A stretch of DNA of 64,000 bases from a phage: sequence record NC_104726.1. The stretch is one strand, 5' to 3'. The notes under the pieces are model-generated. The model was not told the DNA's origin. It searched no databases and worked only from the letters and a program-made list of their open reading frames with translations. How positions within the stretch are numbered: the stretch's first letter is position 1; each line of letters starts with the position of its first letter. Both the position numbers and the translations under genes were made by a program. Positions 13,684 through 41,258 of this stretch are shown piece after piece.

Positions 13684-16600
13684 TTAACTAGGGAAGTTTG
13701 TATAAGCTTCGAGATGGTATTGCTGGTCACCAGGTAGCATAACACCTATGCTTGCAACACCTAATGTTCTACCACCAGGATTCCACTGAAACTTAAATCC
13801 AATCCAACCCGAGCTTCTGGCTGCATCAATGTTGTCACTGTACCCAAAAGTTGCTAGGCCATCAACACCTGCTCCGAAAAGCAGTTGTATCTGGTTCCTT
13901 GGTAGGCCAATAATTTCAGGTATGTAAGCACCGAAAAATGTAGGGTTGGTGGTTGTGGTCGGATTGTCCATGACCGGACCGGTAAAGACCCTCATATTGG
14001 ACGTTCCTGCAGGTCTAGGGTAAGCCCCGTCAAGAGGATTTCCTTCCCAAATAAACCACTGAGGTGCCATCTGTCTGACAGTAAACGATGTTGAAGACGT
14101 TTTGCGGCCTGCATCATCTCTAACTACAAACTTTATGGTGACATTCCCAGTAGCTTTAAATGTTACCAGCCCTGTGGTGGCATCCACTGTTGCAATGTTG
14201 GTATTACTACTTTCCCAAGTCTTTCTAATCCCGGATACGTTGGAAGGGGTGATAGAAGGTTCCTGCATCTGCAGTTTACCGCCCACAATCCCTATGCCGT
14301 TGCCCGGATTATACAGCACACCGACCTCGTCTATAATGTTCCCTGCTTTGAGACTATACTTCCTTGAGAAGTTGTAAGTTCCGTTATAAGTGTGTGTCCC
14401 TGAGAATGTGACATCTGCCTTCCCGTAAGAGATGCAAACCAACGCATACTTCCTGTCAGGCAACGTTTCTCCAGTCTCTGGGTGAGTTTTACCAATCTGG
14501 AACACGCTGGGGTCAGTAGAATCGTGGCTATCGCTGACAGAGCTTGGACCACCCATCAACTGAGGTAAGCAATTCCTTACCCACGTCCAGTTATTATCGC
14601 TAGAGAAGTCAACAGTCAAATCAAACACAACCCACTCATTTGGCTTCCACACAGGTGTTGCGATGGACTTGCCTACACCACCTCCTTGGAGTGTTGCCGA
14701 CTGCTCGGTGATCAGGGCCGCATAGGCCAGAGTTCCTAAACTCAGAGTCTGGCTTGCTGTCCTCACTACCTTAGAATCAGCATCTGTGAAGTTGTTGATG
14801 ATTTGGAATGTGCCATAAGTGTTTTTACAGGTAATTCTGGCGTTCAGCGTGTCAATCTTCCTCACATCTGCCATAGCAGTGTTAGACACAGAGAAGTCAG
14901 AAGCTTTAGCTGAGTTTGCCGCAACAGCAGGATCAACGTTAAGAGTTGCGTTGAACTGACAGGCAGGGGTAACCAGCAGCTTGTTATCACCTATTTGCTT
15001 CCATGAAATACTTTGGACAGGTAGATTCCATTTAATACCTGAGAAAACTTTAGCAACCCTTGGCCCCAAAGCTCCAGTCCTGTTGTCTTTACAGCACATA
15101 GACATGGTGATCGTTGACGGAGTTGCCTGACCGAACAATTCCTGTGCTTTTGCAGAGGACATAGTGTAGAAATTGTCCTTAACAAACTCATCAGCGGCTA
15201 AAGATCCGTCAGCCCTCCACCACTGGACCTGATACCCTGTTTTATCCCAGCCTCCAACCTGCTTCAAGTCCTCCCAAGAGATTTCCAGATCCCCCGTGGT
15301 AGGGTTGATTGCAGCAGTTCCTGGTGTACCGGATGACCACAATGGGATATCAAACCACGCAGGTTTAACAGATTGCACTGCATTAGGACCTATTGCAGCA
15401 GCAAGTTGTTGACCCATCAGCACGCGAGCATCTTTCACCAGGCCCCATTCTATCATAGACCCAGAGTAACCTTCTTTCTTGTAGGCAGAGGATCCGTTCA
15501 AATGGATGAGCCTGCTGCAGTCGAAGCCATACGCTCCACCACCGTTAGGATCTGCAAAGTTGGTTATGATTCTATCCCTAATATTTTTCCATGCCCTGCC
15601 CCCAATCTCATAGTCATGGTCATAACATCTTTGCAGTGTTGTCCAGCAAATGATCGCCATCCTTCTACCATCGCTGAATCCAAAGGCCTGATCGTTAAGC
15701 TCTCTCCACAAGTAGCAGTTAGTGGTCCACATGGCCCTATGAATGTTAAACCAGTTTATAGATTTGGCTGAGTTGTCCCACTGAGTCCCAGGTAATTCAG
15801 GCCATACTGCATTAACCAGCATGTCTTCTGTTCCTGCATCAACCAAGAACCCTCTCACCTTCTTACCCATGCCTACCCTATCTTTTGCAATCCAGCTGCC
15901 AAACAATCTCAGTTTTGGACCGTAGACAACATCTTCCGGATGCTCAAAAGAAACATATTTTAGGTATATTGTAGGGTCACCATAGGTGCCATCACAAACA
16001 GCTTTGTGCATGTTCTCGCCAAGGTCTAGACGAAGTCCTGTTACAACTTTAGACGTGTCGGTGAATTTGTCTGTTAAATCAAACTCATACCACCACCAAC
16101 CTGCACCCAACAATACTTTCTTACAACGCTGTGCGTCTGTATCAGATATTCTCTTATCCTCTGCAAAAGGTGAGTCAGCAAACTGATAGTGCAGAGCGAT
16201 CTCAAAAGGATGTGTGGATGTCCCGTTTTCTGCAAGAACTTGTTTACCTATCAGGTCGCACTTAATGATCATCACAACACGTTTGTATCCGTTTGTTACC
16301 GGAATTTGCATGGACATGGATGTCCCATCCATGTTTGATCTCAGTGCAGTCATGATGATATAAGGGTCAACGGCATTGCCCAGAGTCTCAGGACCGGGGA
16401 TTATCTTATACTTCTTGACCTGCCCCATGATGTAGTCACTGGCGTAAGTTGCCTCATTCAAGCAAGATCCTCCACCAGGTAACTCACCAGGTCCCCAGAA
16501 AAATGCGCCGTAACAGTTGTAGAACCACTTGTTAGGATCGTATTTATTCTTGAAGGTCTGAACCTCGTTGGCCTGTTTTGTCAAGAAAACCTGCGTATCT

Positions 16601-22851: not shown

Positions 22852-23436
22852 TTAGAGGGTAGGTCGCTCCGGGAAGAAAATGTCAGGGGCTTTAGATGTA
22901 TCTATTTCAAGAAGTTTTACCCTGTACATTTTCAAATCTCTGATGTTACGTTTCTGGTCATCAGTAAGATCATATTCAAGGTCAATCATGTCTTGATAGG
23001 CACCAATTCTAGCAGTAGCCCAAGCAAGTTCTGTCTCTATGACACCCTCTGCCTGTTGAACAAAGAATTCATTATCTGTGACAAATTCATCACCAACTAA
23101 ACGCAAAGCGTCGTGGTGAAGCATAATGTTTTCTGGTACCTCTTCTTTTTTGGCGATAACCACACGAAGACCTGGAGCAGGCCATAAGGCATCAGGTTCT
23201 TCTGTAGATGTCTTAAGAATTCCCTTCTCGTCAACAAGTAGGAAGATACAACCCGGATTTTCTTGTCGTAATGTTCGTGACTGCACATACCAATCGCCAT
23301 CATCATTACGTAAAAAATACCCAGTGTATGCGGTGTAATCCTCAACCTCTTGAGGGGTCAGCTCCTTGGTTTCCTTGTTGGAGTGGTATTCGCCAGATCC
23401 CGGTTGGTAAAGTTTAAACTCTTGAAGTATTTTCAT
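22852..23436 (-). CDS. tfa: tail fibre assembly chaperone (lambda Tfa / P2 G-like)
   Basis: C-terminus KMYRVKLLEIDTSKAPDIFFPERP closely matches the lambda Tfa C-terminal motif; sits immediately downstream of a fibre gene. Confidence 0.7.
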   Translation of the reverse strand: MKILQEFKLYQPGSGEYHSNKETKELTPQEVEDYTAYTGYFLRNDDGDWYVQSRTLRQENPGCIFLLVDEKGILKTSTEEPDALWPAPGLRVVIAKKEEVPENIMLHHDALRLVGDEFVTDNEFFVQQAEGVIETELAWATARIGAYQDMIDLEYDLTDDQKRNIRDLKMYRVKLLEIDTSKAPDIFFPERPTL

Positions 23437-24503: not shown

Positions 24504-26576
24504 TTATGAGAAGTCTGGCGGGACAACATCTTCTACATACCCTTTCAGAGCAACCTGCCCCATATGAAGCACGGTAGAATCTCTAGCGGTAACAGTGATG
24601 CTGTCAGACATTACTTGCGGGTATGCCCACACATACTGTTTTACCTCAGGGTATCTATACTCTATAGTTGCCATGTTTCCGCAAATACATCTCCATAAAA
24701 ATTCTTGGTAATTCCTGGTTGGGTCGTAACCATATACCGGAGCAAGCTCTTTACTAGGAACGAACCCTGCAAGGTATTGTATTTCAGACGGTTGCCAACC
24801 TAACTTAACGATAGGTATGTTTACAGACTCTTTTGCCTTTTCAATACCTCCCTGCATCACCCAATCGTAGCACTCAGTGCAGAAGAAATCAAGAGCACCT
24901 GCTTCTTTTTTATATTGGTCAGCAAGGTTCAGCTTTTGCGTAAGCTCGGTTTCCATAATGGTTGGGAAAAACAGCAGAGCTGTCATCTGAGCTGATGCAG
25001 CGTGTGCCTTTATTGCCTTTGAAATAGCCGCAATACGAGCGCCAAGCTTACCACGACAAAATGCTACATACTTGTCGTAAACACCGCCAGTTTTAGGATC
25101 GTCAATAGTCCCAATATCTAATGCATACTCACCTGTCTCATCATAAAACGCCTGTTTTGTAGGGTAATCATAAATACAAGGTCTACGAGTATCGGTATTG
25201 AACCACCACCACGGTTCACCAACCTGCATAATCACTGGCAGGTTGTTTCTCATAGCGGCTGATGCAAAATTCTTAAATACTGCAGTAAGGAAATTCATGC
25301 CCTCTTCAATGGTTGGAGACAGGAGGTAGCTACAAGGTGTATACCCTGTTTTAGCGTAGTTATCGTTCCAGTCTCTTTGGGTCCATTCCAACGGGCAGGC
25401 ATCGCTGTAAAGCTCAAAACTTACAGACTGCATAACGTCGAAGTTATGTCGTTTGGCATTGTACATAAAATCATCATGCCATTTATAAGCTGCAGCGTTT
25501 AGCGCCCCTGTTCTGTTTATAGACCATTGGGTTCCTGACCATGTGTAGTCATAATAATGACTCATACCAACATAGTGGTTTATGGTTCCGGTATAGCCCA
25601 GACGCTTGATATTGTTCAACACTCTTAAAGGAGATACGTTCCACATATCGTCATATGCGGTGCAGATCCCGACGTCGTGCTCTTTAACCTGAATATTGTT
25701 AAGTTGCATCATTTTCCAGCCCGTGTCTGGCTGAAGCAGATCTAGGCGCAACTCACACTCTACATTTTCCGTTCTCGGGTCTGTGCTATTACTTACCCAG
25801 TCTTTAGGCATAAGCGGTATTAAAATCCTTCTCACCTGCCGAGGATCAACACCCATCATGTTGTTGTTCTGATCCATCCCGACGCAGTCCTCGAAATCAA
25901 TATGAATCTCTGCAACATTCTTATCCTCTGAGATGCTGACAGCATATTGAGCTAAAGGAACATAGATGATTGTGCCATCAACAAGGTCTACAGTCATAAT
26001 CATCTTTTCAGGAGTGGAGAAGTTGCTGGCATTGGTTATTGACATTCTGAACCAAAGCTTGGTGTTTCTCATCTCATAGTGATCATCAAACCCAATACCG
26101 AAATGGTCATACTTGTCAACTGTTTCCCAAATGCACCCAGCCATACCTCCATATGTTCTTGACACTAAACGGTTAATACAACAGTTGTCGTCTGCAACAA
26201 TACAGGTACTTTCAGTCTGCTGAGTGGTTGTAACCCAATACCTTGGGTGAAACATTCTCTCCTCAACAGTATCCCAAGATATCCTGTCAAGATTCTCATC
26301 TGAAACTATTGTACATTTCGCCCTTTGTGTTCCAATCATCACCCCTTGAGATTTTGATGAAAACTCCATAAAGAAGCTTCTTGGCAACCTGTTGGGTAAT
26401 TTGTCAACAATTTCTACGGGGATCTCAATACTGGTTGCCCCAATTGGGATAGTTACATCGCCCTCAACATGATTATAATCCCTACCAGGAACGGCAGTAT
26501 CCTGAACTGTTCGGTAGTGAAACTGTGCAGCCATTGTAGAGTAATCACGGTAAGGTTTAAAAACAGCTGTTGCCAT
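24504..26576 (-). CDS. tail fibre / baseplate-attached protein (690 aa)
   Basis: Follows the J-like and I-like baseplate genes in P2-like order; N-terminal Calx-beta-like segment. Confidence 0.4.
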   Translation of the reverse strand: MATAVFKPYRDYSTMAAQFHYRTVQDTAVPGRDYNHVEGDVTIPIGATSIEIPVEIVDKLPNRLPRSFFMEFSSKSQGVMIGTQRAKCTIVSDENLDRISWDTVEERMFHPRYWVTTTQQTESTCIVADDNCCINRLVSRTYGGMAGCIWETVDKYDHFGIGFDDHYEMRNTKLWFRMSITNASNFSTPEKMIMTVDLVDGTIIYVPLAQYAVSISEDKNVAEIHIDFEDCVGMDQNNNMMGVDPRQVRRILIPLMPKDWVSNSTDPRTENVECELRLDLLQPDTGWKMMQLNNIQVKEHDVGICTAYDDMWNVSPLRVLNNIKRLGYTGTINHYVGMSHYYDYTWSGTQWSINRTGALNAAAYKWHDDFMYNAKRHNFDVMQSVSFELYSDACPLEWTQRDWNDNYAKTGYTPCSYLLSPTIEEGMNFLTAVFKNFASAAMRNNLPVIMQVGEPWWWFNTDTRRPCIYDYPTKQAFYDETGEYALDIGTIDDPKTGGVYDKYVAFCRGKLGARIAAISKAIKAHAASAQMTALLFFPTIMETELTQKLNLADQYKKEAGALDFFCTECYDWVMQGGIEKAKESVNIPIVKLGWQPSEIQYLAGFVPSKELAPVYGYDPTRNYQEFLWRCICGNMATIEYRYPEVKQYVWAYPQVMSDSITVTARDSTVLHMGQVALKGYVEDVVPPDFS

Positions 26577-28869: not shown

Positions 28870-31800
28870 TTAGTCGTGAGACTCGTTCCAAGGTCCTTGG
28901 AAACTAGAGTTAGAACGGCTTACCACAACAGTAGGACAGGATATTGCGACCCCTGTTACAGAAGACGTTGACCATGGTGTGTAGATTTCAACAACAATAT
29001 CTATGGTTTGTTCACCAAGACCCGTTATCCCTACCGCACACATGCCGTTGTTGTCGTTTCCGTACTTCTTACCTGCAAGGATTTGATGTCCGGCTATCCA
29101 AACGTTAAGCTGGGAGCTGGCAAGAGTACCATTCAGTTTAAAGAAGAATGTTACGTTCTTACCCTGACCTGAAACGTTATCTACGTATCTCCACCTCCAA
29201 CGGCAAACCCTTTGCCGGGAGTTATATACTGGAGCACAATCTCCGTAAGTCCTGTGTGCAACAATTGCACCTTCGAACTGGTTAGCGCGGATAACAGAAG
29301 CTTCTACACGACCACGGAAGGTACCTCCGGTTGCATCTATGGTGCCTCTAAAGCTACCATTATTGGCATAAACATCCCCACGGAAGGTACCACTAGTGGC
29401 GTTAACTGCCCCTGTGAAGTTACCAGAACTGGCGTTGATGTTGCCTTTCACCCACACATCCATAAATTGGGCGTGCCCGTTCTTGTTAATATACCAACCG
29501 TATTTATGGTACCCGTTGCCATCGTAGTTGTTTGACGAAATTTCTTGTGCGATCTTGGCAGAGGAGATCGTGCCATTCTCTATAAAAGCGTCTTTCAAGA
29601 ACGCTTGGTTGTTCTTGATTGCGAAAGCAAGGGTTGCTGTTCCATTTCCGGGGTTGTATACCGCAAAATTGTTTGCACTAACCATGAAGTAGGATTGAAC
29701 TTGGCCCCCAGACCCTTCCATCCCCAGCTGGATACCTGCAACATATTTATTCCCTGCGGAGTCTACCTGAATCTTAGCTCCCCACTGAGCATCTATTTTA
29801 CCCTCAAGTGTTGTTACAGCTTTAGAGGTATTAGATACTGTAGCCCTGAGCTCATCAATATTACCCATTTCGTCAACAATTTCTTGTTTTGCAGAGGTAA
29901 GTTCTTGACGGATCGCTGTGGCTGTATTATTAACAAGATCAACTGTTGTACTATTAGTTTCTTGAATAGATGCTTGCAGATTGGCAACCTCTTTCTGCAC
30001 ATCATCTTCCAGCTTGGTGATCTTCCCTGTAGCTGCCACCAGATCCTGCTTAATAGCTTCCGTTGTCTTATTTAGCAGATCGGTTGTTGCCTTGTTGGTT
30101 TCTTGAATAGAGGAGTTAAGTTTGCTCTCAGTGTTCTTCAACTCTTCCCGCAGAGTACCTTGAGTTGCAGTTATTTGCTCACTCAATGCTTGAGTTTTAC
30201 GATTAACAAGATCAACGGTTGATCTATTTGTTGTCTCGATTAGTGACCCAAGCCTACCAGACTCTGCTGCAAGTTTATCGTCAAAGGATTGCTGAGCTGC
30301 TACCAGCTTACTGTTAAGGGCAGAAATTTCTCCATTAACCCCTGTAAATTTTTCTGTCGTCTCTCTGACAACACCCTCTATTGTATCCCCAAGCTCTTCA
30401 AAAATGCTAGTAACACGGTCATTGACTGCACCAACATTTTTATCCATTTCCTTGACTGCATTATCAAGATTGGCGGTAAGCTCTTTATAAGTCTCTGTCT
30501 TTTTGAACTCCGCATCAATCTGTGGCATAAGATCTTCTATGGATGTGTAACAGTGGGCTGCACACTCCACAAAAGCAGATGAACCAAAAGCATTTGTTGT
30601 CCTGATATACCAATAATAAACCTTATCGTTCTGCAGACCTTCAGATGTCCAAGTTGAACCAACACCCATACGGGTGGCGTTTGAAGTAACGGTTGCATCA
30701 CTGGTGTCGGGCAACCTTGTCATACCGGATGTCCAAAAGTCATACTGGGTGCTAACACTTGCTAAATCCCTACTATGCGGAATCAAGGTGATAGCAAAGT
30801 ATCCTTGCTTAACCTCTACAGAAACCGGAGCTTCAGGTGCCTGAATGTTAAACTCACAGTACGCTTCTGGAGATACACCACCTTTATAAGATGTTGCAAC
30901 CACGGTTGCTGTGTATGACCCTTTGGTCAAACCTTCTACTCTGACAAACTGCTCAACTGTCTGTGCTGTCCAAACAATCTCTCCGTTCTTTCTTACCTGC
31001 ACAATATTTTGAGCGTAAGTCCCAACGTTGTCCCAGGCCAAAACACCGTGAGTTACTTCCCCAGCTTGGAGAACGGAGTATCTGAAGTTTTGCGGCTGAG
31101 CTACACCGGACGGGGATATCGGAATATCTACATCGCCGGAATCCGGAAGTTGCCCTGTGGCATCATTCCACTCTTTAGCATCTTGACGAAGTTTTACCTT
31201 GACACCACCCTTTTTGGTAAACTCCCATTCAAGAACTCTCATTTCTTGGCCCACTATACCAATACTTGGGAGGTCCATTGTAACATAACGGCCAGGCTTA
31301 AATTTAAAACCTCGCATATTGCAGGTGACTTCAATAATCCTGCCAGCTCTAGCACGTCTTAGGAAGATTGCAGAAACACGCTGAGCTTGATAAGGACTGG
31401 TAACAAAGCGATAGTCTATATCGATTATCTTTCTTTCTCCATCCTTCTCTATCCACTCTGGGACAAACACTGATGGAAAATCTGTTTCAGAATACCCTTT
31501 GGTAGGACTGGTGAATCTGCCAGTTATTGTGTTGGATCTTTTGTCAAATGAGGCTTCCGGATAGATCTTGACCTCACCACAGACACAATCCTCACTTAGT
31601 GTCATTGTTGCCGGGCCATAGTATGCACCAACCAGCAAACCATACTTACCAGCTACATAGCTGAGATCTGCACCACAAGCTTTCAGCATTTCTGCCATAA
31701 TGCTTGCTGGGGCCTCATCCATGTCAAACTCACCGTTAATGGTGTAACGTCGCTCACTGGTTCCGTCAGCGTTTTTTACCGCCTCGTCGCATATGTTGGC

Positions 31801-32469
31801 AGCCTCCTTGAAGGACTCCCAGTTAATGGTTTCGTCAGGACATTTAAGGTACGTTCTTAAATAGTCTAGGATCACCAAGGCCGCGTTATTGGTATACACC
31901 TCTTTACTGATACGAGGATCATAGCATTTTTTACCAACCTTGACAAGTGTAACGTTTGGCAACCCAAAAGGAAACTTGTTAGGGTCAAACCTGAAGCTGG
32001 CACGTAGCCAACTGATCCCTCTACCTATCATGTCAGGTGACCATGATGGGCAGTGTGTACCCATGAAAGGATCAGATGTTTTTCTGTCGTTATGTAGCTC
32101 CCACGATACCAGATCTCCATACGAGGAAATAGGATTACCGTCGATAAGTATATCTTCTATACCTTCCAGAGGGTGATTGGCAAGAACAATAGCACAATGG
32201 AGGGTTCTGTCGCTATCCTGCTCCAAAAACGCAAGCAATCCAGATGTGCGTGTCTTTCCATACACTACAGAGCAAGGTGCAGCAGAAGATCTGAGAAGCT
32301 TTTGTCTATCTTGCTGACTTCTGTAAGATTTGTTGCCCTCAAAAATCTTATCCAGAGTTCTGGTGGTAACAGTGTTCAGGCTGTCAGCCAGAGCTGCCTT
32401 GGATGCGTTCCAGTCATAACTTGAAGATCTTGCAGAAGCAACGATGTTATCAATCATTGCAATTGGCAT
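28870..32469 (-). CDS. host-specificity / central tail fibre protein, lambda J-like (1199 aa)
   Basis: Segments NKYVAGIQLGMEGSGGQVQSYFMVSANNFAVYNPGNG and FN3-like APEAPVSVEVKQGYFAITLIPH parallel lambda J; long coiled-coil and C-terminal Gly-rich repeats. Confidence 0.7.
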   Translation of the reverse strand: MPIAMIDNIVASARSSSYDWNASKAALADSLNTVTTRTLDKIFEGNKSYRSQQDRQKLLRSSAAPCSVVYGKTRTSGLLAFLEQDSDRTLHCAIVLANHPLEGIEDILIDGNPISSYGDLVSWELHNDRKTSDPFMGTHCPSWSPDMIGRGISWLRASFRFDPNKFPFGLPNVTLVKVGKKCYDPRISKEVYTNNAALVILDYLRTYLKCPDETINWESFKEAANICDEAVKNADGTSERRYTINGEFDMDEAPASIMAEMLKACGADLSYVAGKYGLLVGAYYGPATMTLSEDCVCGEVKIYPEASFDKRSNTITGRFTSPTKGYSETDFPSVFVPEWIEKDGERKIIDIDYRFVTSPYQAQRVSAIFLRRARAGRIIEVTCNMRGFKFKPGRYVTMDLPSIGIVGQEMRVLEWEFTKKGGVKVKLRQDAKEWNDATGQLPDSGDVDIPISPSGVAQPQNFRYSVLQAGEVTHGVLAWDNVGTYAQNIVQVRKNGEIVWTAQTVEQFVRVEGLTKGSYTATVVATSYKGGVSPEAYCEFNIQAPEAPVSVEVKQGYFAITLIPHSRDLASVSTQYDFWTSGMTRLPDTSDATVTSNATRMGVGSTWTSEGLQNDKVYYWYIRTTNAFGSSAFVECAAHCYTSIEDLMPQIDAEFKKTETYKELTANLDNAVKEMDKNVGAVNDRVTSIFEELGDTIEGVVRETTEKFTGVNGEISALNSKLVAAQQSFDDKLAAESGRLGSLIETTNRSTVDLVNRKTQALSEQITATQGTLREELKNTESKLNSSIQETNKATTDLLNKTTEAIKQDLVAATGKITKLEDDVQKEVANLQASIQETNSTTVDLVNNTATAIRQELTSAKQEIVDEMGNIDELRATVSNTSKAVTTLEGKIDAQWGAKIQVDSAGNKYVAGIQLGMEGSGGQVQSYFMVSANNFAVYNPGNGTATLAFAIKNNQAFLKDAFIENGTISSAKIAQEISSNNYDGNGYHKYGWYINKNGHAQFMDVWVKGNINASSGNFTGAVNATSGTFRGDVYANNGSFRGTIDATGGTFRGRVEASVIRANQFEGAIVAHRTYGDCAPVYNSRQRVCRWRWRYVDNVSGQGKNVTFFFKLNGTLASSQLNVWIAGHQILAGKKYGNDNNGMCAVGITGLGEQTIDIVVEIYTPWSTSSVTGVAISCPTVVVSRSNSSFQGPWNESHD

Positions 32470-32894
32470 TAATACCTCCAGACATCAACAACGATAGAAT
32501 CTTTCATATCGAACATAAAGACCCCTTTATCACCTTTCGCCCAAATCTGGTTGTTCCAGAACACACCAGCGGTGAGCCCGTTCAGACCATCGAAGATAAC
32601 AATATCGCCACGCTGAACCTGTTTAGGAGTATCTAGTCGAGTCATAAAGAGATCAAAAATAGTAGGCAGGTGTGTGGTTTTGAAACGGAGCATGCACCAT
32701 CTTTTGCTTTCCAACTCTGTTTTATACGTTCCTTCGAAGTTAGAAAGAAAATCTGTTCCGTATTGGGCATCAACACACTTAGCTGCAAAGGTGCAGCAAT
32801 CGTGGAATCCCCATTCAAAAGGTATGGTGGCCTCTTCGTCAAACACTTTCCACAATCTTTCTTGCCAATCCACTAAACGAGGGTGTGTGCTCAT
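32469..32894 (-). CDS. NlpC/P60-like tail assembly protein (lambda K-like), ~141 aa
   Basis: WGFHDCCTF Cys motif and GDIVIF; ATG at 32892-32894 with GGGAGG upstream (track start is a TTG). Confidence 0.4.
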   Translation of the reverse strand: MSTHPRLVDWQERLWKVFDEEATIPFEWGFHDCCTFAAKCVDAQYGTDFLSNFEGTYKTELESKRWCMLRFKTTHLPTIFDLFMTRLDTPKQVQRGDIVIFDGLNGLTAGVFWNNQIWAKGDKGVFMFDMKDSIVVDVWRY

Positions 32895-33445
32895 TAAACC
32901 TCCCAAATGATCGGGCGGCTCGCCACCTGATCCACATATTTAAAAAATCTGTCATTATCGTTTCTTGAGCTGTGGCTTTCCTCCGTGTACCGATAAGGAA
33001 AACCTCTTAACCAACTGTTGAAGATGGAAGAGATGGATATGGACAAAGCACTGTTCTCACCTGTCTGAATAGCCATATCTGTTATAAGGCCGTCAAACAA
33101 GCCATTAGTTGTAACAGGCAGACCATTCTCCATAGCGGTAATATACAACGTGGCACGACAACCAGAATACTCCGTCTTCAGTAGATCACCAACATACTTA
33201 GGATCAAACCCGTTCAATGTTGCTACCACAGATCCGAAGTTGGTGGCATCTTTCTCAGACACAGCAGTTAATGTTGCTGATCCACCTATCCCTATAAAAT
33301 GTTGCCCCTCAATTACTACAACACCAGTGCCTGAGCACACCCTGACAGTTCCTGTCGGTAGCTCCAGCTTTGCAGCAATTAAGATCTCAACACCATCAAG
33401 CTCCAGCTTTTCAAGAAATAAATTATCTAATGGCGCTCTGATCAT
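32894..33445 (-). CDS. tail tip protein (lambda L-like / GTA g13-like), ~183 aa
   Basis: Position in an M-L-K-J-like order; ATG at 33443-33445 with GAGGA upstream (track start is a TTG). Confidence 0.35.
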   Translation of the reverse strand: MIRAPLDNLFLEKLELDGVEILIAAKLELPTGTVRVCSGTGVVVIEGQHFIGIGGSATLTAVSEKDATNFGSVVATLNGFDPKYVGDLLKTEYSGCRATLYITAMENGLPVTTNGLFDGLITDMAIQTGENSALSISISSIFNSWLRGFPYRYTEESHSSRNDNDRFFKYVDQVASRPIIWEV

Positions 33446-33446
33446 C

Positions 33447-34037
33447 TTAGAAATCCTCAAAGAAGGTGATAACTATATTATCACCTTTTTGCATAGCATC
33501 GACTTTTTGCTTAATTTTATAAATATCTCTGATATGAAACCTACCCTTTGGGGATTGAGTTATTATCTTCATAGTATCCCCTGCGGCAATAGGTTTTCTA
33601 AGTCTTGGAGATATGCTTATAACAGCAGACCCAACACCATCGCTGCGCACTGGAGCTGTTACCACTTTCAACTCATCATTGACAGATATTTTATCCCCAG
33701 CTCTGGCTATGTCTCTGTTTGGCTCCCACCCAACCGTCTTCAAAAAATCGTCGTTACCAGTAGGCCCAAGGGCGATTGGCTCATTAGCTGTAACTGAGTG
33801 ACCGTAAGTTTTAATAAGAAAGATGTTTCCATCTTTATACACCTGATCAACAAAGCTCTTAAGCTCTAGCAACTGTGACTCGCTGATATTGGAAACCGTC
33901 AAAGTGCCTTTCCAGTTAGGTGTGGCATAGGTTACTTTTTGCGTTTTACCTGTAAACGGACTTTTAAACGTAACAATATCTGCCAGCAGCTCCAATCTAA
34001 TATCTGGAAGGTATCTAGGCCTTTCCCATAAAAACAT
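33447..34037 (-). CDS. distal tail protein (lambda M-like / GTA g12-like), 196 aa
   Basis: Position upstream of L/K/J-like genes; ATG 34035-34037. Confidence 0.35.
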   Translation of the reverse strand: MFLWERPRYLPDIRLELLADIVTFKSPFTGKTQKVTYATPNWKGTLTVSNISESQLLELKSFVDQVYKDGNIFLIKTYGHSVTANEPIALGPTGNDDFLKTVGWEPNRDIARAGDKISVNDELKVVTAPVRSDGVGSAVISISPRLRKPIAAGDTMKIITQSPKGRFHIRDIYKIKQKVDAMQKGDNIVITFFEDF

Positions 34038-34109: not shown

Positions 34110-34129
34110 GCCCCCGCCGAAGCGAGGGC
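34110..34129 (-). terminator. imperfect hairpin GCCCCCGC-CGAA-GCGAGGGC with T-run on minus strand
   Basis: Downstream of tailspike gene 34137-37955; minus strand continues TTTTTGTTTG. Confidence 0.4.
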
Positions 34130-34136
34130 AAAACAG

Positions 34137-37100
34137 TTACTTCAGTTTCTCTTGCAACCCAGTAACAACCTCTGTCAATTTTTTAACCTGCTCCTCAAGG
34201 GCGGTTATTTTATCGTCCTGTTCCCTGCAAACCTGGACAAGCAAGCCTGTTACGGCTGCGTAATCCACGCTATAGAATCTTTCCTCTGTTATCAAAGGAG
34301 TTCCATCTTGATCAGAGTTTGGGATTTCCTTTCTTTGCACGAAAGAGCTAACTGCTTCCGGCAGCGCTTCAAGCACTTCTTGTGCTATAACACCTGCATA
34401 AGGCATACCGTTCTCTTTAAGAGTGTAAGTATAACCCTTCATCTTCCGGATAGCTTCTAACGCATCAGGAATAACAGCTATGTTGTCTTTCAGGTCTCTG
34501 TCAGAGCTCTGATTGACAGATGTGCAATTCACTGCACCGTTTACAGAAAGATATCTTGATTTATCCGGCAAGGTACCGCAATGCCATACCCAATTTGCTT
34601 GAGACTCGTCAAGAACCTTAAACTCTAACACGTTTGGACGAGCCCCTGTGCTGCCGTTACCCCAATAATGCATATGGGCGGCATTAGCAGGCATGTTGCC
34701 ACCGTTATTAGTAACATGGCTTCCAGAAATATACACCTTTAACTCTGGGGTAGGTATTTCCCCTTCTGGGGTTGTTCCTCCATACCTGAAGCTAACACCA
34801 TTACCACCTGTTTGGGTCCACGGTCCCCAAGTGAAGACCTGTTTCACCATATTCCCATAACGTGTAAATCTATCGCCATGATAGGTAATATACTCTTGAA
34901 CACACCCATTACCATTATTGGCGTTATTTTGCAACACAATAAGTGTTCCGGCCTCATTTACGGGATAATGACGATCATATGTTGCATCATTATTTGCAGG
35001 CTGATGGTAAATACCTTCCCACAATCCGTGATAGGTGTTAAGGTCTGAAGTACCAAGACCCTGACCCCTGTGTTGCATAGCCTTATTCCAGGGATGGTGA
35101 TTACCACCTTCTATAGACCTGGTATACAAGTTACTTTGTCTGCCAGCAATCTGGAAAGCGTAGTTTCCAGAGAATCCTACAGATAAACCGCCTACAACCA
35201 TGGTATCTTGTGGGCCGTTAACATTACCAGCTATTATTTTTGACGGGTTGTTAGGCCCAAACTGGTTGTTCCAGTCTGCACCCGTGTGGCATACAAAACC
35301 ACCAGGAGCTGAGAAAGTGCCATCTTTGTTGAAATTGTAGAACTTATGAGCTGTACCTACAACATCGCGAACGATAACTTGACCAGCTTCCGGAGTAGAT
35401 CTGAACTCTGCCTGGCCTTGCAGTCTTGCACCATTACCACATTTAGAGGTAAAGGTGTTGTTGATCAGATCCTCTGTTCCTTCCGATGCAGCTTGGAACC
35501 CTGCGTTAGAGAACAGTGCTTTTCTAGTGGTCTGACTGCCAGGACAAATGTAGTCAATACCGTCTGCCCATAGCTCGACTTTTGGCATATTCATTTTGCT
35601 CATCACAGCATAGCGTTCAGCAGTGCCTATATAGTGCCACTGTGTGCCGCCACCAGTGTAGAACCCTGAAGTCCCTTTGAAGTCAACAATAGGTCTGGTG
35701 TTGGTATTATTATCTCCAAGAACAGCAAGATTCAAATCTGCTGACTGGAGAGGTGCAACGAACTTAACACCGTCCTGATTGTCTGTTACAGAGCCAACCT
35801 GGTAATCTTGCTCCCTGGTAAACACCTCGACAACATTTCTACTTGCGTATATGCTGACAGGGAAAGCACGCGCCTCTGCATAGAAAGCAACATATTCTTG
35901 TTTACCCCTTGTTGGAGCAACCATCCCAAGAAGTGCTTTTTCATTCTGGTAGAAATTTACTACCCCGTAGAAAGAGTCTCCTCTGTTTGTCCAACCACCA
36001 GTTCTATAGTGACACTGTAAGGTCGCACAGTTCATAGGGTCATTTCCAGATGAAGACCTGGTGACTATAGTAATATCTGTACCTGTCGAAGGGGCGTAAT
36101 ACGGATCTGTTCTAACGATGATTGGGTAGTATTTCCCATCTTCCATCCCTGCGGTTCTTGGCAGTGTTAAGAAGTCTTTTACACCTGCTGCTATAGGAAC
36201 TTTGAACAGATTCTGAGCGTCTGCTAAAGTTGTAGCCCCAGTGCCACCTGCGGCTTGAGGTAGAGGTTCCCACTTGGCCTTCCGGTTGTTATAAACACCC
36301 CATTCAAGCGTTCCTTCACCTTGCTCGTCCATACCGCCATCCCAGACAACCATCTTGGCGGCTTTCTTGGACCCCCAGAAACCTCTTTCTGCCCCTGAAC
36401 TACGGATCCACTCTCCAAGTCCCCAGTTTGCCAGCTGACCGTTCAGATCACCAACCTGCATATATTTAGGACAATCTAAGACCCCATCCTCACGGAAGCC
36501 TAAATAGCTATGAGTTTCAGATCCTTTTGCGCCTTTGTGCAGGTGGATTGTCAACCAAGCCTTATTGTCGTTTCTTACCTCAGAGTAGATCCTATACCCA
36601 TGCTCAAGGACACCGTCAGCGCCGTATTTATCCCCATGGAGAATACCTGATGGAGACTTAACCTCAGAAGTGCTTTGAGATAGGTAAAGGTTCCCGAAGG
36701 TAGGGGTATTTCTAGACCCGAGACCGATGTGCGATCTAAAGGTATCATCGTTACGAGGTCTGACCATCGGCTGCCATGCAGTCCACTGATTTGTGTTGGC
36801 CTGATAGGTTCTCAAATACCAAACATCTACGTTAGAGAATGGATAGTATTCCTGACGACAACCTGTACCGCCGTTAGCATTGTTCTGCCAGACAATCAAG
36901 TGACCAGCACCAGAACCTGCAGGGTAACCATTTGCCTCAGTTGCATAAGCAGTCATCGGCTGGTAGTATACACCATCCTGATTACCAGTCAAGTTATTGA
37001 TATTGAAATTTGGCTCAAGGGCTGCACGTTGCTTATAGAAAGCACCGATATTGATACGGACCCCAGCGGCATCTCTAGCCCCTGTGCCGCCTTGCTCTAT

Positions 37101-37955
37101 AGCAAGAGGTTGCCACGAAGCTGTTTGTTGGTTCCACATACCCCAACGGCCTGTTGCATCAAGCTGCAAGTACCCTGCCGTATTTAAATCATCTCCAGCA
37201 CGGATAACTGTTCTTGTTGGGTTGTTTGCCTCTAGGCGTTTAAATTCATCACGAAGTGCTATTCTTTTCGTTGTTGCTACACCGTTGGTTACTGCAATGG
37301 TGTACATGGCTCCGGTGGTAGCGCCACGGAAAATACCATCAACAGTTGTAGTATCACGACGAGATACCACACCGTTCAGAAATTTTTCACCAGCTGCTAC
37401 AGAAGGGTAGTTGGTAGTTCTTCCCTCTTCAATAACTGCAGGGCCAACAAAGTTATCAAGGTGAATAACATCGCCTACAGTGTGCACTGTACCAAAATCT
37501 ACACGCTGTGCAAGTGCTTTGGCATCGTTAGCTGTCTGAACAGTAACATCCATTACATCCTGGACAGACTGCCCTTCGGCTGTCATGATCATAGATGCGC
37601 CAATGGTAGATTCCAGCTCCTCCCTTAAGGACGGGTCAGTATATACCATCCATGCAGCATCAGTGATCCCACCATCGGAGTACGGTGAAGACAGTGCAGG
37701 AACAGTGTGCGGAAATTCGCCTTTCCAACGTAGGTAGAGGTCTTCCTCTTCGAAGTAGGCAAAATCCATTGGGCCGTTTAACTTACCACCTTCCTTAAAG
37801 GAGATTACATGAGAAACAGTCCCATCCACATGGACAACATCGCCAATTTTTACACGACGGGTCAGGTCTGGTTGTTGAACAACCAGGTAATCATCCTCTG
37901 TCACTGCGGTAGTGGCAGGAAGAGATTCAATTCTGACAACTTTAATATCAGCCAT
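34137..37955 (-). CDS. tailspike / tail fibre with C-terminal intramolecular chaperone (peptidase S74-like) domain, 1272 aa
   Basis: C-terminal SDRDLKDNIAVIPDALEAIRKMKGYTYTL...GVIAQEV matches the auto-cleaving chaperone domain of endosialidase/T5 L-shaped-fibre type proteins; N-terminal domain shared with gene 40590-41258. Confidence 0.6.
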   Translation of the reverse strand: MADIKVVRIESLPATTAVTEDDYLVVQQPDLTRRVKIGDVVHVDGTVSHVISFKEGGKLNGPMDFAYFEEEDLYLRWKGEFPHTVPALSSPYSDGGITDAAWMVYTDPSLREELESTIGASMIMTAEGQSVQDVMDVTVQTANDAKALAQRVDFGTVHTVGDVIHLDNFVGPAVIEEGRTTNYPSVAAGEKFLNGVVSRRDTTTVDGIFRGATTGAMYTIAVTNGVATTKRIALRDEFKRLEANNPTRTVIRAGDDLNTAGYLQLDATGRWGMWNQQTASWQPLAIEQGGTGARDAAGVRINIGAFYKQRAALEPNFNINNLTGNQDGVYYQPMTAYATEANGYPAGSGAGHLIVWQNNANGGTGCRQEYYPFSNVDVWYLRTYQANTNQWTAWQPMVRPRNDDTFRSHIGLGSRNTPTFGNLYLSQSTSEVKSPSGILHGDKYGADGVLEHGYRIYSEVRNDNKAWLTIHLHKGAKGSETHSYLGFREDGVLDCPKYMQVGDLNGQLANWGLGEWIRSSGAERGFWGSKKAAKMVVWDGGMDEQGEGTLEWGVYNNRKAKWEPLPQAAGGTGATTLADAQNLFKVPIAAGVKDFLTLPRTAGMEDGKYYPIIVRTDPYYAPSTGTDITIVTRSSSGNDPMNCATLQCHYRTGGWTNRGDSFYGVVNFYQNEKALLGMVAPTRGKQEYVAFYAEARAFPVSIYASRNVVEVFTREQDYQVGSVTDNQDGVKFVAPLQSADLNLAVLGDNNTNTRPIVDFKGTSGFYTGGGTQWHYIGTAERYAVMSKMNMPKVELWADGIDYICPGSQTTRKALFSNAGFQAASEGTEDLINNTFTSKCGNGARLQGQAEFRSTPEAGQVIVRDVVGTAHKFYNFNKDGTFSAPGGFVCHTGADWNNQFGPNNPSKIIAGNVNGPQDTMVVGGLSVGFSGNYAFQIAGRQSNLYTRSIEGGNHHPWNKAMQHRGQGLGTSDLNTYHGLWEGIYHQPANNDATYDRHYPVNEAGTLIVLQNNANNGNGCVQEYITYHGDRFTRYGNMVKQVFTWGPWTQTGGNGVSFRYGGTTPEGEIPTPELKVYISGSHVTNNGGNMPANAAHMHYWGNGSTGARPNVLEFKVLDESQANWVWHCGTLPDKSRYLSVNGAVNCTSVNQSSDRDLKDNIAVIPDALEAIRKMKGYTYTLKENGMPYAGVIAQEVLEALPEAVSSFVQRKEIPNSDQDGTPLITEERFYSVDYAAVTGLLVQVCREQDDKITALEEQVKKLTEVVTGLQEKLK

Positions 37956-37990
37956 TCTTTCTCCTGAAAGGGGGCAAACAGCCCCCTATG

Positions 37991-40588
37991 TTAAAGGTAC
38001 AATCCACGGTATTGAGCATAAAGGCCCAGACCGCGAAGGATTTCGCCAGAGTGATAGCCAACCGGATCAGAAACTGCCCAGCAGCCGTTTAAAACATTAT
38101 CCCCATTAATGAAGTGGTGCTTTTGCAGTAGCTTCACACAGGCTTCTACAACAATATCTATTTGAGGTATTGTCTCTGAATACCCGCACAGACCTAGCCA
38201 GCAGCAACCTGCAAGCCATTCACCTACCACCCACATCCTGTCTCCTCTGTCCTGATAAGAATATCCCCCAGAGGTGTTAAAGTCTGTAGGTAGATTTCCT
38301 GAATGAGATGACTGGAATCTGTTGAGGAACCATGCCCATTTCTGGCAGAACAGGAACAGTCTTTCATCAACAGGTTCTTTATGTTTCTTGAGCTCATATA
38401 TTGTGCGGCACGCAGCAACAAAAGATCTTGACTGGAGCTTAGAGTTATCTACCATCTCCCACCAACCAGTCAACCCTTCATTACCTCTCTGCCATACATA
38501 ACGTGAGGCAACTGGACCCTCTGTCTTAAATGTATTATTATACCAGACTTGAGCGTCATACAGAAAGCCTATTGTATTTGACAATCTATGGCGATCTATG
38601 TTTTCTGCACCCATGCAGTAGACTGCTGGGTATTGCATGCCTGGGTAGGGCCAATTTGGCCTTTCCTCTAAGAGATAGTTTTCCTTATCTATCACCTTTC
38701 CGGCAGGGAACACACCTGGTGTGTGCCTGTATGCACCTTGCTTGTAGTTTCTGACATAGCAATCACCAACCTTAGCGGTTGATTCTGTCTTGCTTGCCAT
38801 CCATACGCTAAACCAGATTAGATAAGCATCCCTATCTGCAATATAGAATTGCGGCAGTGTGTTGACGCAATATAGATCAAACAAGCCATTACCTATCTGC
38901 CTGTCGCTTAGGCTGAAATCTACAGAGGTGAGTCCCTTAGGATTAGCAAAGAAAGGTTTAATCTCTTCTTCAGTGTGATGAGGTTGTGTCGGATCTAGTT
39001 TGAAATCTCCTAGAGTAAGAGTTTCTGTTATCCATTGTCCATTAGTGGCATATAGATCAGCATACCATAACCACCTGTCTTTGTCAAGAAATTTGACCCT
39101 TACCATCTCATCATCTGATCGATAAGTTACTGAGTTTAAAGAAATCTCTCTTCCAAAATTGAAAGTTACTTTGCCTCTTGCTATATTACAACGGGTGAAG
39201 TTGTCAGAGTGGTTGTAAATGTCAGTATCGTACTGCATACTAACACTGGCACCACCGCTCACGGCAATGTTTTCCTCTTTAGGTAAGAGGTACGGATTAC
39301 CGTCTTTACCAACTACCTCTACGAAATCAGTAACCTTGGCAACTATTTCTGTTACCTCTGCCCCTCCAAAAGGAACCCCTATCCTGTACTGTTTTTTGTT
39401 ATTGTTGCCATCATTAAGGATGAAATGTGGCTGGAACAGAACCCCTTCTCCTCCGAAATTCATAACAATTTCAGCATCTCTGCCTATTTTGTATGTAGTC
39501 CCTTTTTGAATTATTTCGCAAGGCTGGCGTGCGTTCATTCTAAAATTGATATACCCGTCACTGTCCCTACTCATGACAGGAACTGTTCCTGCAACAAGAC
39601 AAGTACCATCTGTGAACGGTGCCTTAATCAACGTGGTCTTTCTAAACAGTTTGTCGTAGGCGTTTATGTCACTGAAATTAAGCAACTTGTTGTAAGACTG
39701 TTTAAACGCGGTGTAATACTTTTCTTCACCTGTCAAGGTGTAGAGTTGATAACAAGCGTCACACCACATTTCTTCCCCGTCCAACTCTGGGGCCTGATTA
39801 TCTGCAACCACGTTTATAGGATTTACAATTACAGGGGATCCAGCAGGTATCACCGATCCACCCTGCTCTTGAGGTAATCTTACACAATAGGTCACCTTGT
39901 GGCTTCCTGTAACACCCTTATCTTGTAATTGGATTGTGCCGAACTCTATAGACGTATGCCCACTGTCGGCTATGCTCCCGTTATCCCAATAGCGGTTACC
40001 ATCCCATGCTATGTACCACTCAACCCACCAACTTAATCCGGATGTTGTCCAATCTGGGTTAGCATCTGTGCCACCGTAAACATCAGAGTCTACAGTGTTT
40101 CTTCCTAACACACCGTTATACGCTTGGAATGCCTTGTCCAGGTATTCCCCCCATGTCGGAGATCCAGCTGGGATTTTTCCTCTACCGTTGGTAAAAGACA
40201 CTACCACATCTTTAAACCCACCGTGTGATGGAACCCCATCTGTGGATAGAGGGTAGTGGGACAATCTTTGCATTTTACTTTCTACGGCATATGCACCCAG
40301 AAGATGACTATTGTAAGCTTCCCAAGCATCTTTTGCCCTATCCAGATAGAAATCGCTTTTCGATGCCCTGTATGCTTCAATGTATCCCAGAATCAACACA
40401 GCTTGGGACTCATGCATTGCCCAATCGTTATTTATCTTATTACCTGCCCACCCTGCAGCTATAAGACCATCAGGGTTTACTAGCTTATTTTGTGTAGGTG
40501 TGTTGGTAATACCTGTGTTGTTATCGAGGCACTTCCTGTGCCCCTCAATCATCTGAAATACGTTATCAATGTTGTGTTGAATACGCAT
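37991..40588 (-). CDS. tail-associated protein, possible alpha/alpha-toroid glycoside hydrolase-like enzyme (865 aa)
   Basis: ATG 40586-40588 with AGGAG upstream, 2 nt after the stop of the adaptor-like gene; Trp/aromatic-rich motifs; fold assignment by impression only. Confidence 0.35.
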   Translation of the reverse strand: MRIQHNIDNVFQMIEGHRKCLDNNTGITNTPTQNKLVNPDGLIAAGWAGNKINNDWAMHESQAVLILGYIEAYRASKSDFYLDRAKDAWEAYNSHLLGAYAVESKMQRLSHYPLSTDGVPSHGGFKDVVVSFTNGRGKIPAGSPTWGEYLDKAFQAYNGVLGRNTVDSDVYGGTDANPDWTTSGLSWWVEWYIAWDGNRYWDNGSIADSGHTSIEFGTIQLQDKGVTGSHKVTYCVRLPQEQGGSVIPAGSPVIVNPINVVADNQAPELDGEEMWCDACYQLYTLTGEEKYYTAFKQSYNKLLNFSDINAYDKLFRKTTLIKAPFTDGTCLVAGTVPVMSRDSDGYINFRMNARQPCEIIQKGTTYKIGRDAEIVMNFGGEGVLFQPHFILNDGNNNKKQYRIGVPFGGAEVTEIVAKVTDFVEVVGKDGNPYLLPKEENIAVSGGASVSMQYDTDIYNHSDNFTRCNIARGKVTFNFGREISLNSVTYRSDDEMVRVKFLDKDRWLWYADLYATNGQWITETLTLGDFKLDPTQPHHTEEEIKPFFANPKGLTSVDFSLSDRQIGNGLFDLYCVNTLPQFYIADRDAYLIWFSVWMASKTESTAKVGDCYVRNYKQGAYRHTPGVFPAGKVIDKENYLLEERPNWPYPGMQYPAVYCMGAENIDRHRLSNTIGFLYDAQVWYNNTFKTEGPVASRYVWQRGNEGLTGWWEMVDNSKLQSRSFVAACRTIYELKKHKEPVDERLFLFCQKWAWFLNRFQSSHSGNLPTDFNTSGGYSYQDRGDRMWVVGEWLAGCCWLGLCGYSETIPQIDIVVEACVKLLQKHHFINGDNVLNGCWAVSDPVGYHSGEILRGLGLYAQYRGLYL

Positions 40589-40589
40589 C

Positions 40590-41258
40590 TTAGATAGCTC
40601 CTGCGATAATCAGTGCCCCGTACCAAGTTAACCCGTTGTCGTAGGTTTCCAACTTGAAAATGTCTGTTGCACCAGCTGTAAATGTTAGGATAGGATCTCT
40701 TCCGTAGGACCATTTAACATTACCAGGCCAATAGACTTTGTTGCCGCCAGAGGTCTGAGTAATGCATACGGTTATAGTTCTCGCCACCCCTTCAAGACCT
40801 TCTGTTTGATTTTCAAAAGAGATTGTGGTATTTGAAGTTAGTCGAACCTTAAAGGTATCCGCAACTTCAAGATCCATATCAAGCTGACCACCGATAGATC
40901 CGTAATCAACTATTCTGCCAGAAGAAGTTGCAGCAAGCTCACCAAAAACAGACCAGGCGTTTGCAGACACACCCCCAGCACCCTCTACAGTGGAGTCTGG
41001 GAGGATTATTTTAGGATAATCCCCGTTCCACGTGTAGTAGCGCTTAGTTTCTGGATCATAAGCAAAGTCCTTCTTGCTCTTAAGATAACCACCCTCTGTG
41101 AAATAGACTATTTTAGTAATGCTGAGATCGTTGACAACATCATCAATCTTAGCCTTTCTTGTCCCATCAGTCTGGTTGACAACCAAGAAGTCATCACTCA
41201 GGACTGTTTCTGCATCTTCAAGATCTGGAATTGGTATTGTAGGATAAGCTACAGCCAT
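40590..41258 (-). CDS. tailspike N-terminal (particle-attachment-like) domain protein, 222 aa
   Basis: N-terminus IPDLEDAETVLSDDFLVVNQTDGTRKAKIDDVV parallels the N-terminus of tailspike 34137-37955. Confidence 0.45.
   Translation of the reverse strand: MAVAYPTIPIPDLEDAETVLSDDFLVVNQTDGTRKAKIDDVVNDLSITKIVYFTEGGYLKSKKDFAYDPETKRYYTWNGDYPKIILPDSTVEGAGGVSANAWSVFGELAATSSGRIVDYGSIGGQLDMDLEVADTFKVRLTSNTTISFENQTEGLEGVARTITVCITQTSGGNKVYWPGNVKWSYGRDPILTFTAGATDIFKLETYDNGLTWYGALIIAGAI

Follow-up and report, generated by a model that had tools for sequence, protein, structure and literature searches.

A two-arm tail model for an rV5-like phage, in which a short adaptor probably carries an (alpha/alpha)6-barrel protein beside a variable fibre

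Three open reading frames (ORFs) at positions 34137-41258 of a 64,000-nucleotide (nt) stretch of phage DNA (record NC_104726.1; the window hereafter) encode proteins of 222, 865 and 1272 amino acids (aa), which are homologues of gp43, gp42 and gp41 of Escherichia phage rV5, respectively, and are called by these names below. Analysis of the three proteins and of their relatives makes it likely that the virion bears two kinds of arm, a long fibre (gp41) and a short adaptor (gp43) that carries gp42, and that both arms plug in via the same N-terminal module. A branched receptor-binding complex in which one protein anchors another had been suggested in a first-pass annotation of the sequence, and the idea, taken as the 222-aa protein anchoring the 865-aa protein, is supported here, strongly though indirectly, by gene linkage, by the exchange of anchors in front of a constant domain, by the arrangement in Serratia phage Kaonashi, by fusions of gp42 relatives to tail anchors in cis, and by mass spectrometry of virions. 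The features concerned are as follows.

40590-41258, minus strand: 222-aa adaptor, homologue of rV5 gp43 and BASEL bas57_0024 (ORF; phrog_7760 over the full length, expectation value (E) 7.8e-120)
40935-41258, minus strand: N-terminal attachment module of the adaptor, aa 1-108, comprising a ~40-aa N-peptide motif and Tail_spike_N (BLASTP; Pfam PF18668 at aa 51-105)
40593-40925, minus strand: gp43C (aa 112-222), a beta-sandwich domain onto which the 865-aa protein is proposed to dock
40586-40602, minus strand: coupled gp43/gp42 junction, with AGGAG at 40602-40598, the gp43 stop TAA at 40592-40590, one base at 40589 and the gp42 ATG at 40588-40586 (read from the sequence)
37991-40588, minus strand: 865-aa virion protein, glycosidase-like, with an (alpha/alpha)6 barrel into which beta-sandwiches are inserted at ~aa 100-260 and 329-613; homologue of rV5 gp42 and phi92 gp141
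34137-37955, minus strand: 1272-aa lateral tail fibre, homologue of rV5 gp41, variable among Vequintaviruses (phrog_6578)
37641-37955, minus strand: aa 1-105 of the fibre, its N-terminal attachment module and a paralogue of the module in the adaptor (BLASTP, Pfam and PDB sequence matches)
34140-34505, minus strand: C-terminal intramolecular chaperone/Peptidase_S74 of the fibre, aa 1151-1272, which opens with Ser1151 and Lys1156 and has a coiled-coil tail (Pfam PF13884, SDRDLK motif, PDB 6f45 match)

The N-termini of the 222-aa and 1272-aa proteins are 38% identical over 99 aa (residues 8-105 and 7-105, respectively; BLASTP E 3e-18), a likeness far beyond chance, and the similarity that the first-pass annotation had expected over their first ~100 residues is therefore present. 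Tail_spike_N (PF18668) was detected near the N-terminus of both proteins, at 41.0 bits in the 222-aa protein and 40.7 bits in the 1272-aa protein against a gathering cut-off of 25, and no further ORF of the 64-kb window was found to contain the shared module by BLAST and a motif scan. Sequence matches of the module in the PDB were the N-regions of 9occ gp13, of CBA120 TSP3/4 and of 4qnl (G7C gp63.1); by analogy, the Tail_spike_N module would mediate attachment to another tail protein. Because the AlphaFold2 model of the N-terminal half of gp43 was unusable (predicted local distance difference test score, pLDDT, about 30-40), the module is defined here by sequence alone.

The N-peptide motif is common to gp43, gp41, the adaptor of phage ESCO13, the 224-aa and 712-aa proteins of a GAP31-like phage, and phiEa104 gp71 and gp72. 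The GAP31-like phage keeps the same trio of genes, its 224-aa adaptor being 47% identical over 103 aa to its 712-aa spike-like protein. In related genera the third gene retains the shared N-terminus and differs in its distal part, and even the third gene of SSE121, which is labelled 'colanic acid degradation', has the same N-terminus. Sharing of this module implies two like docking sites, and not that gp43 anchors gp41. In phiEa104, gp71 (502 aa; locus L080, 3050-4558), encoded just upstream of the adaptor gp72, has the N-peptide of the adaptor and, in addition, a beta-sandwich domain that members of the gp42 family contain in their central part (about aa 480-580; phrog_23426).

Beyond the shared N-terminus, gp43 had been described as lacking a distal part, which did not hold, since residues ~112-222 form a conserved domain of their own (gp43C). 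This domain is distinct from gp41, and several small 'tail fiber' PHROG profiles match this half only. In Phapecoctavirus genomes residues 109-222 of gp43 alone were matched by tblastn, and the 157-aa adaptor of ESCO13 (Phapecoctavirus) consists of the ~40-residue N-peptide and gp43C and nothing more. Thus gp43 is a minimal adaptor of two modules, not a truncated fibre. Its structure model was poor overall (pLDDT 54); residues 112-222, which form the beta-sandwich, reached about 75.

Foldseek searches with gp43C returned first the Pa223 capsid spike (E 3.8e-4); fold matches of the domain also include gp9, CpaA and StcE, and those of the gp43 model include TSP4-N. Sequence searches gave no significant relative of gp43C among solved structures, the lectin OAA appearing at E 0.4. 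The listed fold relatives of domain XD1 of TSP4-N are T4 gp9, T4 gp10, CpaA and StcE (PMC8825819 Table 2), and because the gp9/CpaA/StcE set overlaps this list, gp43C probably belongs to the XD1-type sandwich class, within the structural repertoire of fibre-attachment regions. The fold neither proves nor excludes a docking function, since partner binding in TSP4 or gp10 is not a function of XD1, and CpaA and StcE use this fold to bind glycans.

The relation between gp43C and gp42 was followed in other genomes. Three distant gp42 homologues (25-28% identity), from two metagenome contigs and one Burkholderia prophage, are preceded by a gene whose C-terminus matches gp43C (phmmer E 1e-20, 3e-20 and 2e-12), and the N-termini of these preceding genes are unrelated. 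A word-indexed homologue search was nearly blind for the proteins of this study (6, 4 and 7 matches), and locus scans and tblastn were used instead. Scanning of viral contigs with a gp43C alignment gave 72 loci, 41 with close and 31 with weaker matches. The next gene encodes a gp42 homologue in 40 of the 41 close loci, usually with overlapping or abutting stop and start codons; two of the close loci (L023 and L044) were settled through the reverse scan. This reverse scan, carried out with a gp42 alignment, detected an ORF ending in gp43C just upstream in 65/66 evaluable loci, the exception being a weak partial match. From the end of the gp43C ORF to the gp42 match the distance was -3 to +58 nt, apart from two loci at 225 nt, where the gap arises because the gp42 match starts at residue 57. 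The two proteins match similar numbers of phage-database records (535 and 524), and the pairing of gp43C with gp42 is near-obligate.

Other genes lie downstream of gp43C in the 31 weaker loci. At L045-L077, distant gp43C-like C-terminal domains are followed by unrelated genes, for example those for a 145-aa and a 147-aa protein in nine contigs, and a distant gp43C-like domain may be a general carrier for various partners.

Because many of the loci are near-duplicates, the independent count is that of N-terminal classes and not of loci. BLAST clustering separated 13 unrelated N-terminal classes ahead of gp43C, which include Tail_spike_N (Vequintavirus, GAP31-like), the bare N-peptide (Phapecoctavirus, SPN3US), coiled-coil (BP63, GAP52), fibre-like (phiEa104), SPRY-containing (Burkholderia) and major-tail-protein-like (prophage-like contigs of ~30 kb) sequences, and the T7 gp17 N-terminal domain. 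In all 13 classes the breakpoint of the anchor swap lies upstream of gp43C, and none lies between gp43C and gp42. The two-gene cassette occurs in phages of Escherichia, Pseudescherichia, Brenneria, Pseudomonas, Acinetobacter and Burkholderia, among them myoviruses, podoviruses, jumbo phages and prophages.

The T7-type class is represented by Kaonashi, a podovirus of the Autographiviridae, whose sole 'tail fiber' is a 269-aa protein composed of Phage_T7_tail and gp43C and encoded in the gp17 slot. Its gene is overlapped by that of a 930-aa gp42 homologue, and the pair is located between the genes for the internal-core transglycosylase and the holin/terminase genes. Since a T7-like phage needs a receptor-binding fibre, the Kaonashi fibre is most simply read as an adaptor plus its enzyme.

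In the major-tail-protein-like class, one locus (L011, 3639-5324) and about 60 like contigs of ~30 kb encode a 561-563-aa adaptor, consisting of a phrog_158 N-domain, fibre repeats and gp43C, followed by a 940-952-aa enzyme, which suggests enzyme-bearing fibres on a siphovirus-type tail protein in prophages.

In the window, the first-pass annotation had placed the 865-aa gene right behind the 222-aa gene with a ribosome-binding site of its own, and the junction bears this out: it reads AGGAG-CTATCTAAG-ATG, with the gp42 start codon one base after the gp43 stop and AGGAG 9 nt upstream of the ATG. Most related loci have the same abutting or overlapping stop and start, at -4 to +1 nt.

The enzyme-like features attributed to gp42 likewise hold at the level of prediction, as its structure model is that of a glycosidase-type (alpha/alpha)6 barrel with carbohydrate-binding-like beta-sandwich insertions. 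The acidic residues E60, which lies in a TTEGQ motif, D270, which lies in A-x-D-[AG]-E, D502, D609 and E849 are invariant across 15 diverse homologues and are candidate catalytic residues; the TTEGQ and A-x-D-[AG]-E motifs may resemble those of glycoside hydrolase (GH) family GH8. The N-terminus of gp42 (G16, G26) is conserved in all homologues, and no N-terminal anchoring domain was found in the cassette-type homologues. The phi92 homologue gp141 is listed as a 'glycosidase' tail protein. Mass spectrometry identified gp41, gp42 and gp43 in rV5 virions (PMC3606486) and the gp42 homologue ORF17 as a component of the S144 virion (PMC7432712).

An exhaustive profile search extended the enzyme family to 362 representatives (clusters at 50% identity), so that the family is widespread while having neither a Pfam match nor a sequence relative among solved structures. 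In 36 of 149 listed representatives a longer N-terminal region stands ahead of the enzyme domain, and in those looked at this region is a cis-fused tail anchor, of the lambda gpM/Dit-like (P0076, P0117), Collar (P0109) and J-like Phage-tail_3 (P0079) types. Because relatives are fused to tail anchors, the enzyme appears to be a tail-mounted module that is anchored in cis or, in the cassette, in trans. In the cassette the distal protein is devoid of an anchor and its gene is linked to that of the adaptor, as in other pairs of adaptor and distal protein assembled in trans. From this linkage, together with anchor swapping and fold, we infer that gp43C holds gp42.

Several observations weigh against this conclusion. 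The gp42 model has only moderate confidence (pLDDT 70; predicted template-modelling score 0.54), and gp42 matched no Pfam family even at E <= 10 and no CAZy family. None of the 149 representatives has gp43C ahead of the enzyme domain in one protein, so that a natural gp43C-gp42 fusion as proof of interaction was not obtained. The identity matrices of gp43C and gp42 correlate weakly over 15 pairs (Spearman 0.31); a p-value for this correlation is meaningless because the comparisons are not independent, and it was not used as evidence. Furthermore, in BP63, S144 and SPN3US the cassette is next to head-tail connector genes, and its position in the virion may differ between phages.

The loci in question lie outside the baseplate cluster. 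In BP63 (L078, 3336-6916) the cassette is flanked by head-tail connector genes on one side and by the sheath gene on the other, and SPN3US (L079, 3500-6991) has it a few genes downstream of the head maturation protease; the position of S144 ORF16/17 is similar (PMC7432712). The BP63 and SPN3US cassettes may be neck or collar appendages.

Two further results concern the enzyme family. No defined GH family could be assigned to gp42: Pfam searches (E <= 10) with seven aligned homologues gave a lone GH match, to GH76 at E 0.005 in one of them, and PDB profile searches with two alignments matched only a generic 34-residue six-hairpin repeat. In one 293-aa metagenomic protein (P0074) gp43C comes after a segment that corresponds to the initial ~190 residues of the enzyme family, in reverse of the usual order, which could be a rearrangement or an assembly artefact.

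Alternatively, gp43 might act on its own as a short fibre or lectin and bind a host glycan through its C-terminal sandwich, gp42 being attached otherwise (for example by its conserved N-terminal helix) and the adjacency of the two genes reflecting co-regulation or co-transfer of cooperating proteins that are not directly bound. This explanation gains from the glycan-binding domains of CpaA and StcE among the fold matches of gp43C (PMC8825819 Table 2), from the top Foldseek match, Pa223, which is a free-standing trimeric capsid spike, from the lack of fused gp43C-gp42 proteins and from the retention of G16 and G26 in every gp42 homologue. It is nevertheless improbable in our judgement, for it leaves unexplained why swaps break upstream of gp43C and never between gp43C and gp42, it would make the 269-aa Kaonashi fibre the whole receptor-binding protein beside an unanchored 930-aa protein, and it does not account for gp42-like domains of other lineages needing a cis-fused tail anchor.

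Less probable still is that gp42 serves the gp43 trimer as a large assembly chaperone, or caps it transiently, and is not a working virion enzyme. Fibre chaperones are typically encoded right behind a fibre-like gene and coupled to it in translation, as gp42 is, and co-transfer of a fibre tip with its chaperone as a module is known (PMC10579305). However, gp42 and its homologues, at 865-1169 aa, are far above the size of known fibre chaperones, the predicted glycosidase-type barrel with its invariant acidic residues and insertions resembling carbohydrate-binding modules does not fit such a role, and no match to Caudo_TAP or another chaperone family was found, the Caudo_TAP chaperone of the window being encoded at 22852-23436; the protein is also a virion component in rV5 and S144, and relatives are fused to tail anchors. 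Finally, that gp43 is a decayed, truncated duplicate of a fibre gene which kept its attachment domain and has no role of its own might be thought from its shortness and from its having only the first ~105 residues in common with gp41, but such a pseudogene was rejected on account of its conservation (at least 99% aa identity in 96 phage records) and presence in virions. Moreover, the C-terminal half of gp43 bears no relation to gp41, being a separate domain of wide conservation, and the two-module design recurs in other genera.

The other arm of the two-arm model is gp41, which the first-pass annotation had called a tailspike with a self-cleaving chaperone domain. The chaperone part stands: Peptidase_S74 (PF13884) matched aa 1151-1202 of 1272 (E 8.7e-14, 52 bits against a cut-off of 22), the match starting at profile position 1 exactly at S1151-D-R-D-L-K1156, and PDB 6f45 matched aa 1139-1265. 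A catalytic Ser with a Lys five residues on, at the start of the S74 domain, is found in K1F endoNF and T5 pb1. The spike label does not stand. GGTGA fibre motifs occur in gp41 at aa 289 and aa 570, and its best matches in PHROG and GenBank are labelled tail fibre. In its shaft and tip the protein is mosaic, with counterparts in T5-like long tail fibres, in lambdoid side fibres and in other lateral fibres, and it showed no sign of an enzymatic beta-helix.

In tblastn searches gp41 was matched at >=99% in 2 records only, with many matches at 80-95% and some sharing aa 1-1049 alone, and gp42 was >=99% identical in about 95 records; gp41 is thus much more variable among Vequintaviruses than gp42 and gp43 (2 versus about 95 records at >=99%). 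This variability beside constant gp42 and gp43 fits a constant tool next to a variable fibre, and from its position gp41 is expected to be among the fibre genes that the BASEL paper describes as strongly allelic.

In the mechanism that we propose, the first arm would be the 1272-aa long, host-range-variable fibre, with the S74 chaperone probably driving trimer folding and then, to judge from the motif, cutting itself off at Ser1151. In the second arm the attachment module of gp43 (aa 1-108) would dock, and gp43C (~110 aa) would hold gp42, which has no anchor of its own and whose barrel presumably binds or cuts a conserved surface glycan. The translational coupling of gp43 and gp42 would favour matched amounts of the two proteins.

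The likeness to known branched systems is one of principle. In CBA120 (TSP1-4) and G7C (gp66/gp63.1) one tail-docked protein carries others, and the Tail_spike_N head module of gp41 and gp43 is as in the CBA120 TSPs and 4qnl. In contrast, the partners in these phages are beta-helix trimers on gp10-like XD2/XD3 jellyrolls (PMC8825819), whereas the carried protein here is predicted to be an (alpha/alpha)6 barrel. Moreover, gp43C resembles XD1 and not XD2/XD3, and has no sequence homology to the latter.

Podoviruses of the SP6/K1-5/K1E and KP32 types mount an enzyme, encoded by a gene of its own, on a short protein whose N-domain attaches to the tail, and the Kaonashi homologue, with its T7 gp17-type N-domain, occupies the same genomic slot. 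The rV5 adaptor differs from these in its anchor, which is on a myovirus baseplate, and gp43C and the enzyme fold are unrelated to them. With T5 pb1 and the K1F endosialidase, gp41 has in common the C-terminal S74 domain with Ser...Lys at its start and a shaft mosaic with T5-like fibres; its N-terminal anchor differs, and cleavage of gp41 is predicted from the motif. Compared with (alpha/alpha)6 hydrolases (GH8, GH48, GH76, GH88, GH105) and AGE-type epimerases, gp42 is 10-14% identical, has no Pfam match and contains large beta-sandwich insertions. It also differs from tail-fibre chaperones, being an 865-aa virion component without a match to their families.

The genes themselves, the S74 module, the tailspike-like N-terminus and the branched adaptor principle (CBA120, G7C, K1-5/SP6) are already known. 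Orthologues are rV5 gp41/gp42/gp43 (96-97% nt identity) and phi92 gp140/gp141, the small gene of Salmonella phage SPFM19 being labelled 'Phi92_gp140', and the rV5 genome paper had already reported a C-terminus of gp41 like the K1F endosialidase chaperone (HHpred match 3GW6) and a P22-tailspike-like N-terminus of gp43 (PMC3606486). Neither gp43/gp140 as the carrier of gp42/gp141 nor gp43C plus an (alpha/alpha)6 enzyme as a portable cassette was found in the literature searched, which excluded Schwarzer et al. 2012 on phi92.

A wider and more tentative proposal is that gp43C and gp42 may form a self-contained portable cassette, in which a new docking domain would hold a non-trimeric (alpha/alpha)6 glycanase of an undescribed family on at least 13 different anchors, among them the baseplates of myoviruses, the tail of a T7-type podovirus and a siphovirus anchor like a major tail protein, and also in jumbo phages and prophages, and that this cassette could be 'fibre II' of rV5/phi92-type phages. 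In the 2026 cryo-electron microscopy paper on phi92, fibre II is attached at the base of fibre I and was left unassigned; gp140 alone was considered, and gp141 was not mentioned. Because that work weighed gp140 only, the gp140-gp141 unit is a reasonable candidate for fibre II, an assignment that we offer as speculation.

In transcription order, the tail cluster of the window comprises the tape measure, tube initiator, hub and spike genes, a gene for a 238-aa baseplate protein (rV5 gp44 homologue), the gp43-gp42-gp41 homologues, a siphovirus-like tip cassette and the wedge proteins; the whole lies in what was identified by megablast as a Vequintavirus (rV5-like myovirus) genome, with 96-97% nt identity over the whole 7.1 kb of the three genes to rV5 and ~120 other Vequintavirus genomes. 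The BASEL phage MaxTheCat is 96-97% identical (nt) to the 222-aa adaptor gene, and its gp43, gp42 and gp41 homologues are labelled 'sialidase domain protein', 'lateral tail fiber protein with glycosidase domains' and 'lateral tail fiber protein', respectively. About 20 GenBank MG0656xx 'Campylobacter phage' records (C7, C9, A112b, A116, A142 etc.; host C. jejuni) are 96-100% identical to 34137-41258 and are probably mislabelled or contaminant assemblies. Two hairpins flank the fibre gene.

37970-37986, minus strand: GGGGGC-tgttt-GCCCCC, a GC-rich hairpin with TTTC behind it, located after the stop of gp42 and ahead of the ribosome-binding site of gp41 (read from the sequence)
34110-34129, minus strand: terminator-like hairpin GCCCTCGC-ttcg-GCGGGGGC followed by TTTTTGTTTG, directly after the fibre gene (terminator scan)

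The GGGGGC/GCCCCC hairpin was missed by the terminator scan because its T-run is short, and it might attenuate read-through from the enzyme gene into the fibre gene; the hairpin after the fibre gene, with its T-run, is strong.

Three other regions on the minus strand of the window encode putative tail-tip or receptor-binding components. The siphovirus-style tail-tip cassette inside the contractile-tail baseplate cluster (28870-34037) includes genes for a distal-tail-protein-like protein (33447-34037), a tail protein (32894-33460), DUF6950 (32469-32906) and a 1199-aa lambda-J-like protein (Phage_Tail_Tip, Ig_J). At 24504-26576 a 690-aa protein is encoded that combines an N4 gp65-type non-contractile-tail-sheath TIM-barrel with an N-domain and Calx-beta, and which a 2026 preprint describes as a deacetylase-type receptor-binding protein tied to the NGR polysaccharide receptor. 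The 1875-aa ORF at 13684-19311 has Ig-like Pfam matches only, with Big_2 above threshold and a weaker NUP210-like match at about aa 1680-1735, and is presumably another lateral fibre.

Phages of the rV5, phi92 and phAPEC8 types belong to the most common coliphages of broad host range and serve as components of therapy cocktails, and which genes build which of their fibres is still unsettled (BASEL paper, phi92 cryo-electron microscopy paper). The assignment of gp42 to gp43 as its carrier, with gp41 on a like docking site, would help to interpret low-resolution fibre densities. Furthermore, because the adaptor-enzyme pair is conserved while its anchor is freely exchanged, the cassette is a natural candidate for engineering, in which a swap of the ~100-residue anchor could move a glycan-targeting enzyme onto another phage.

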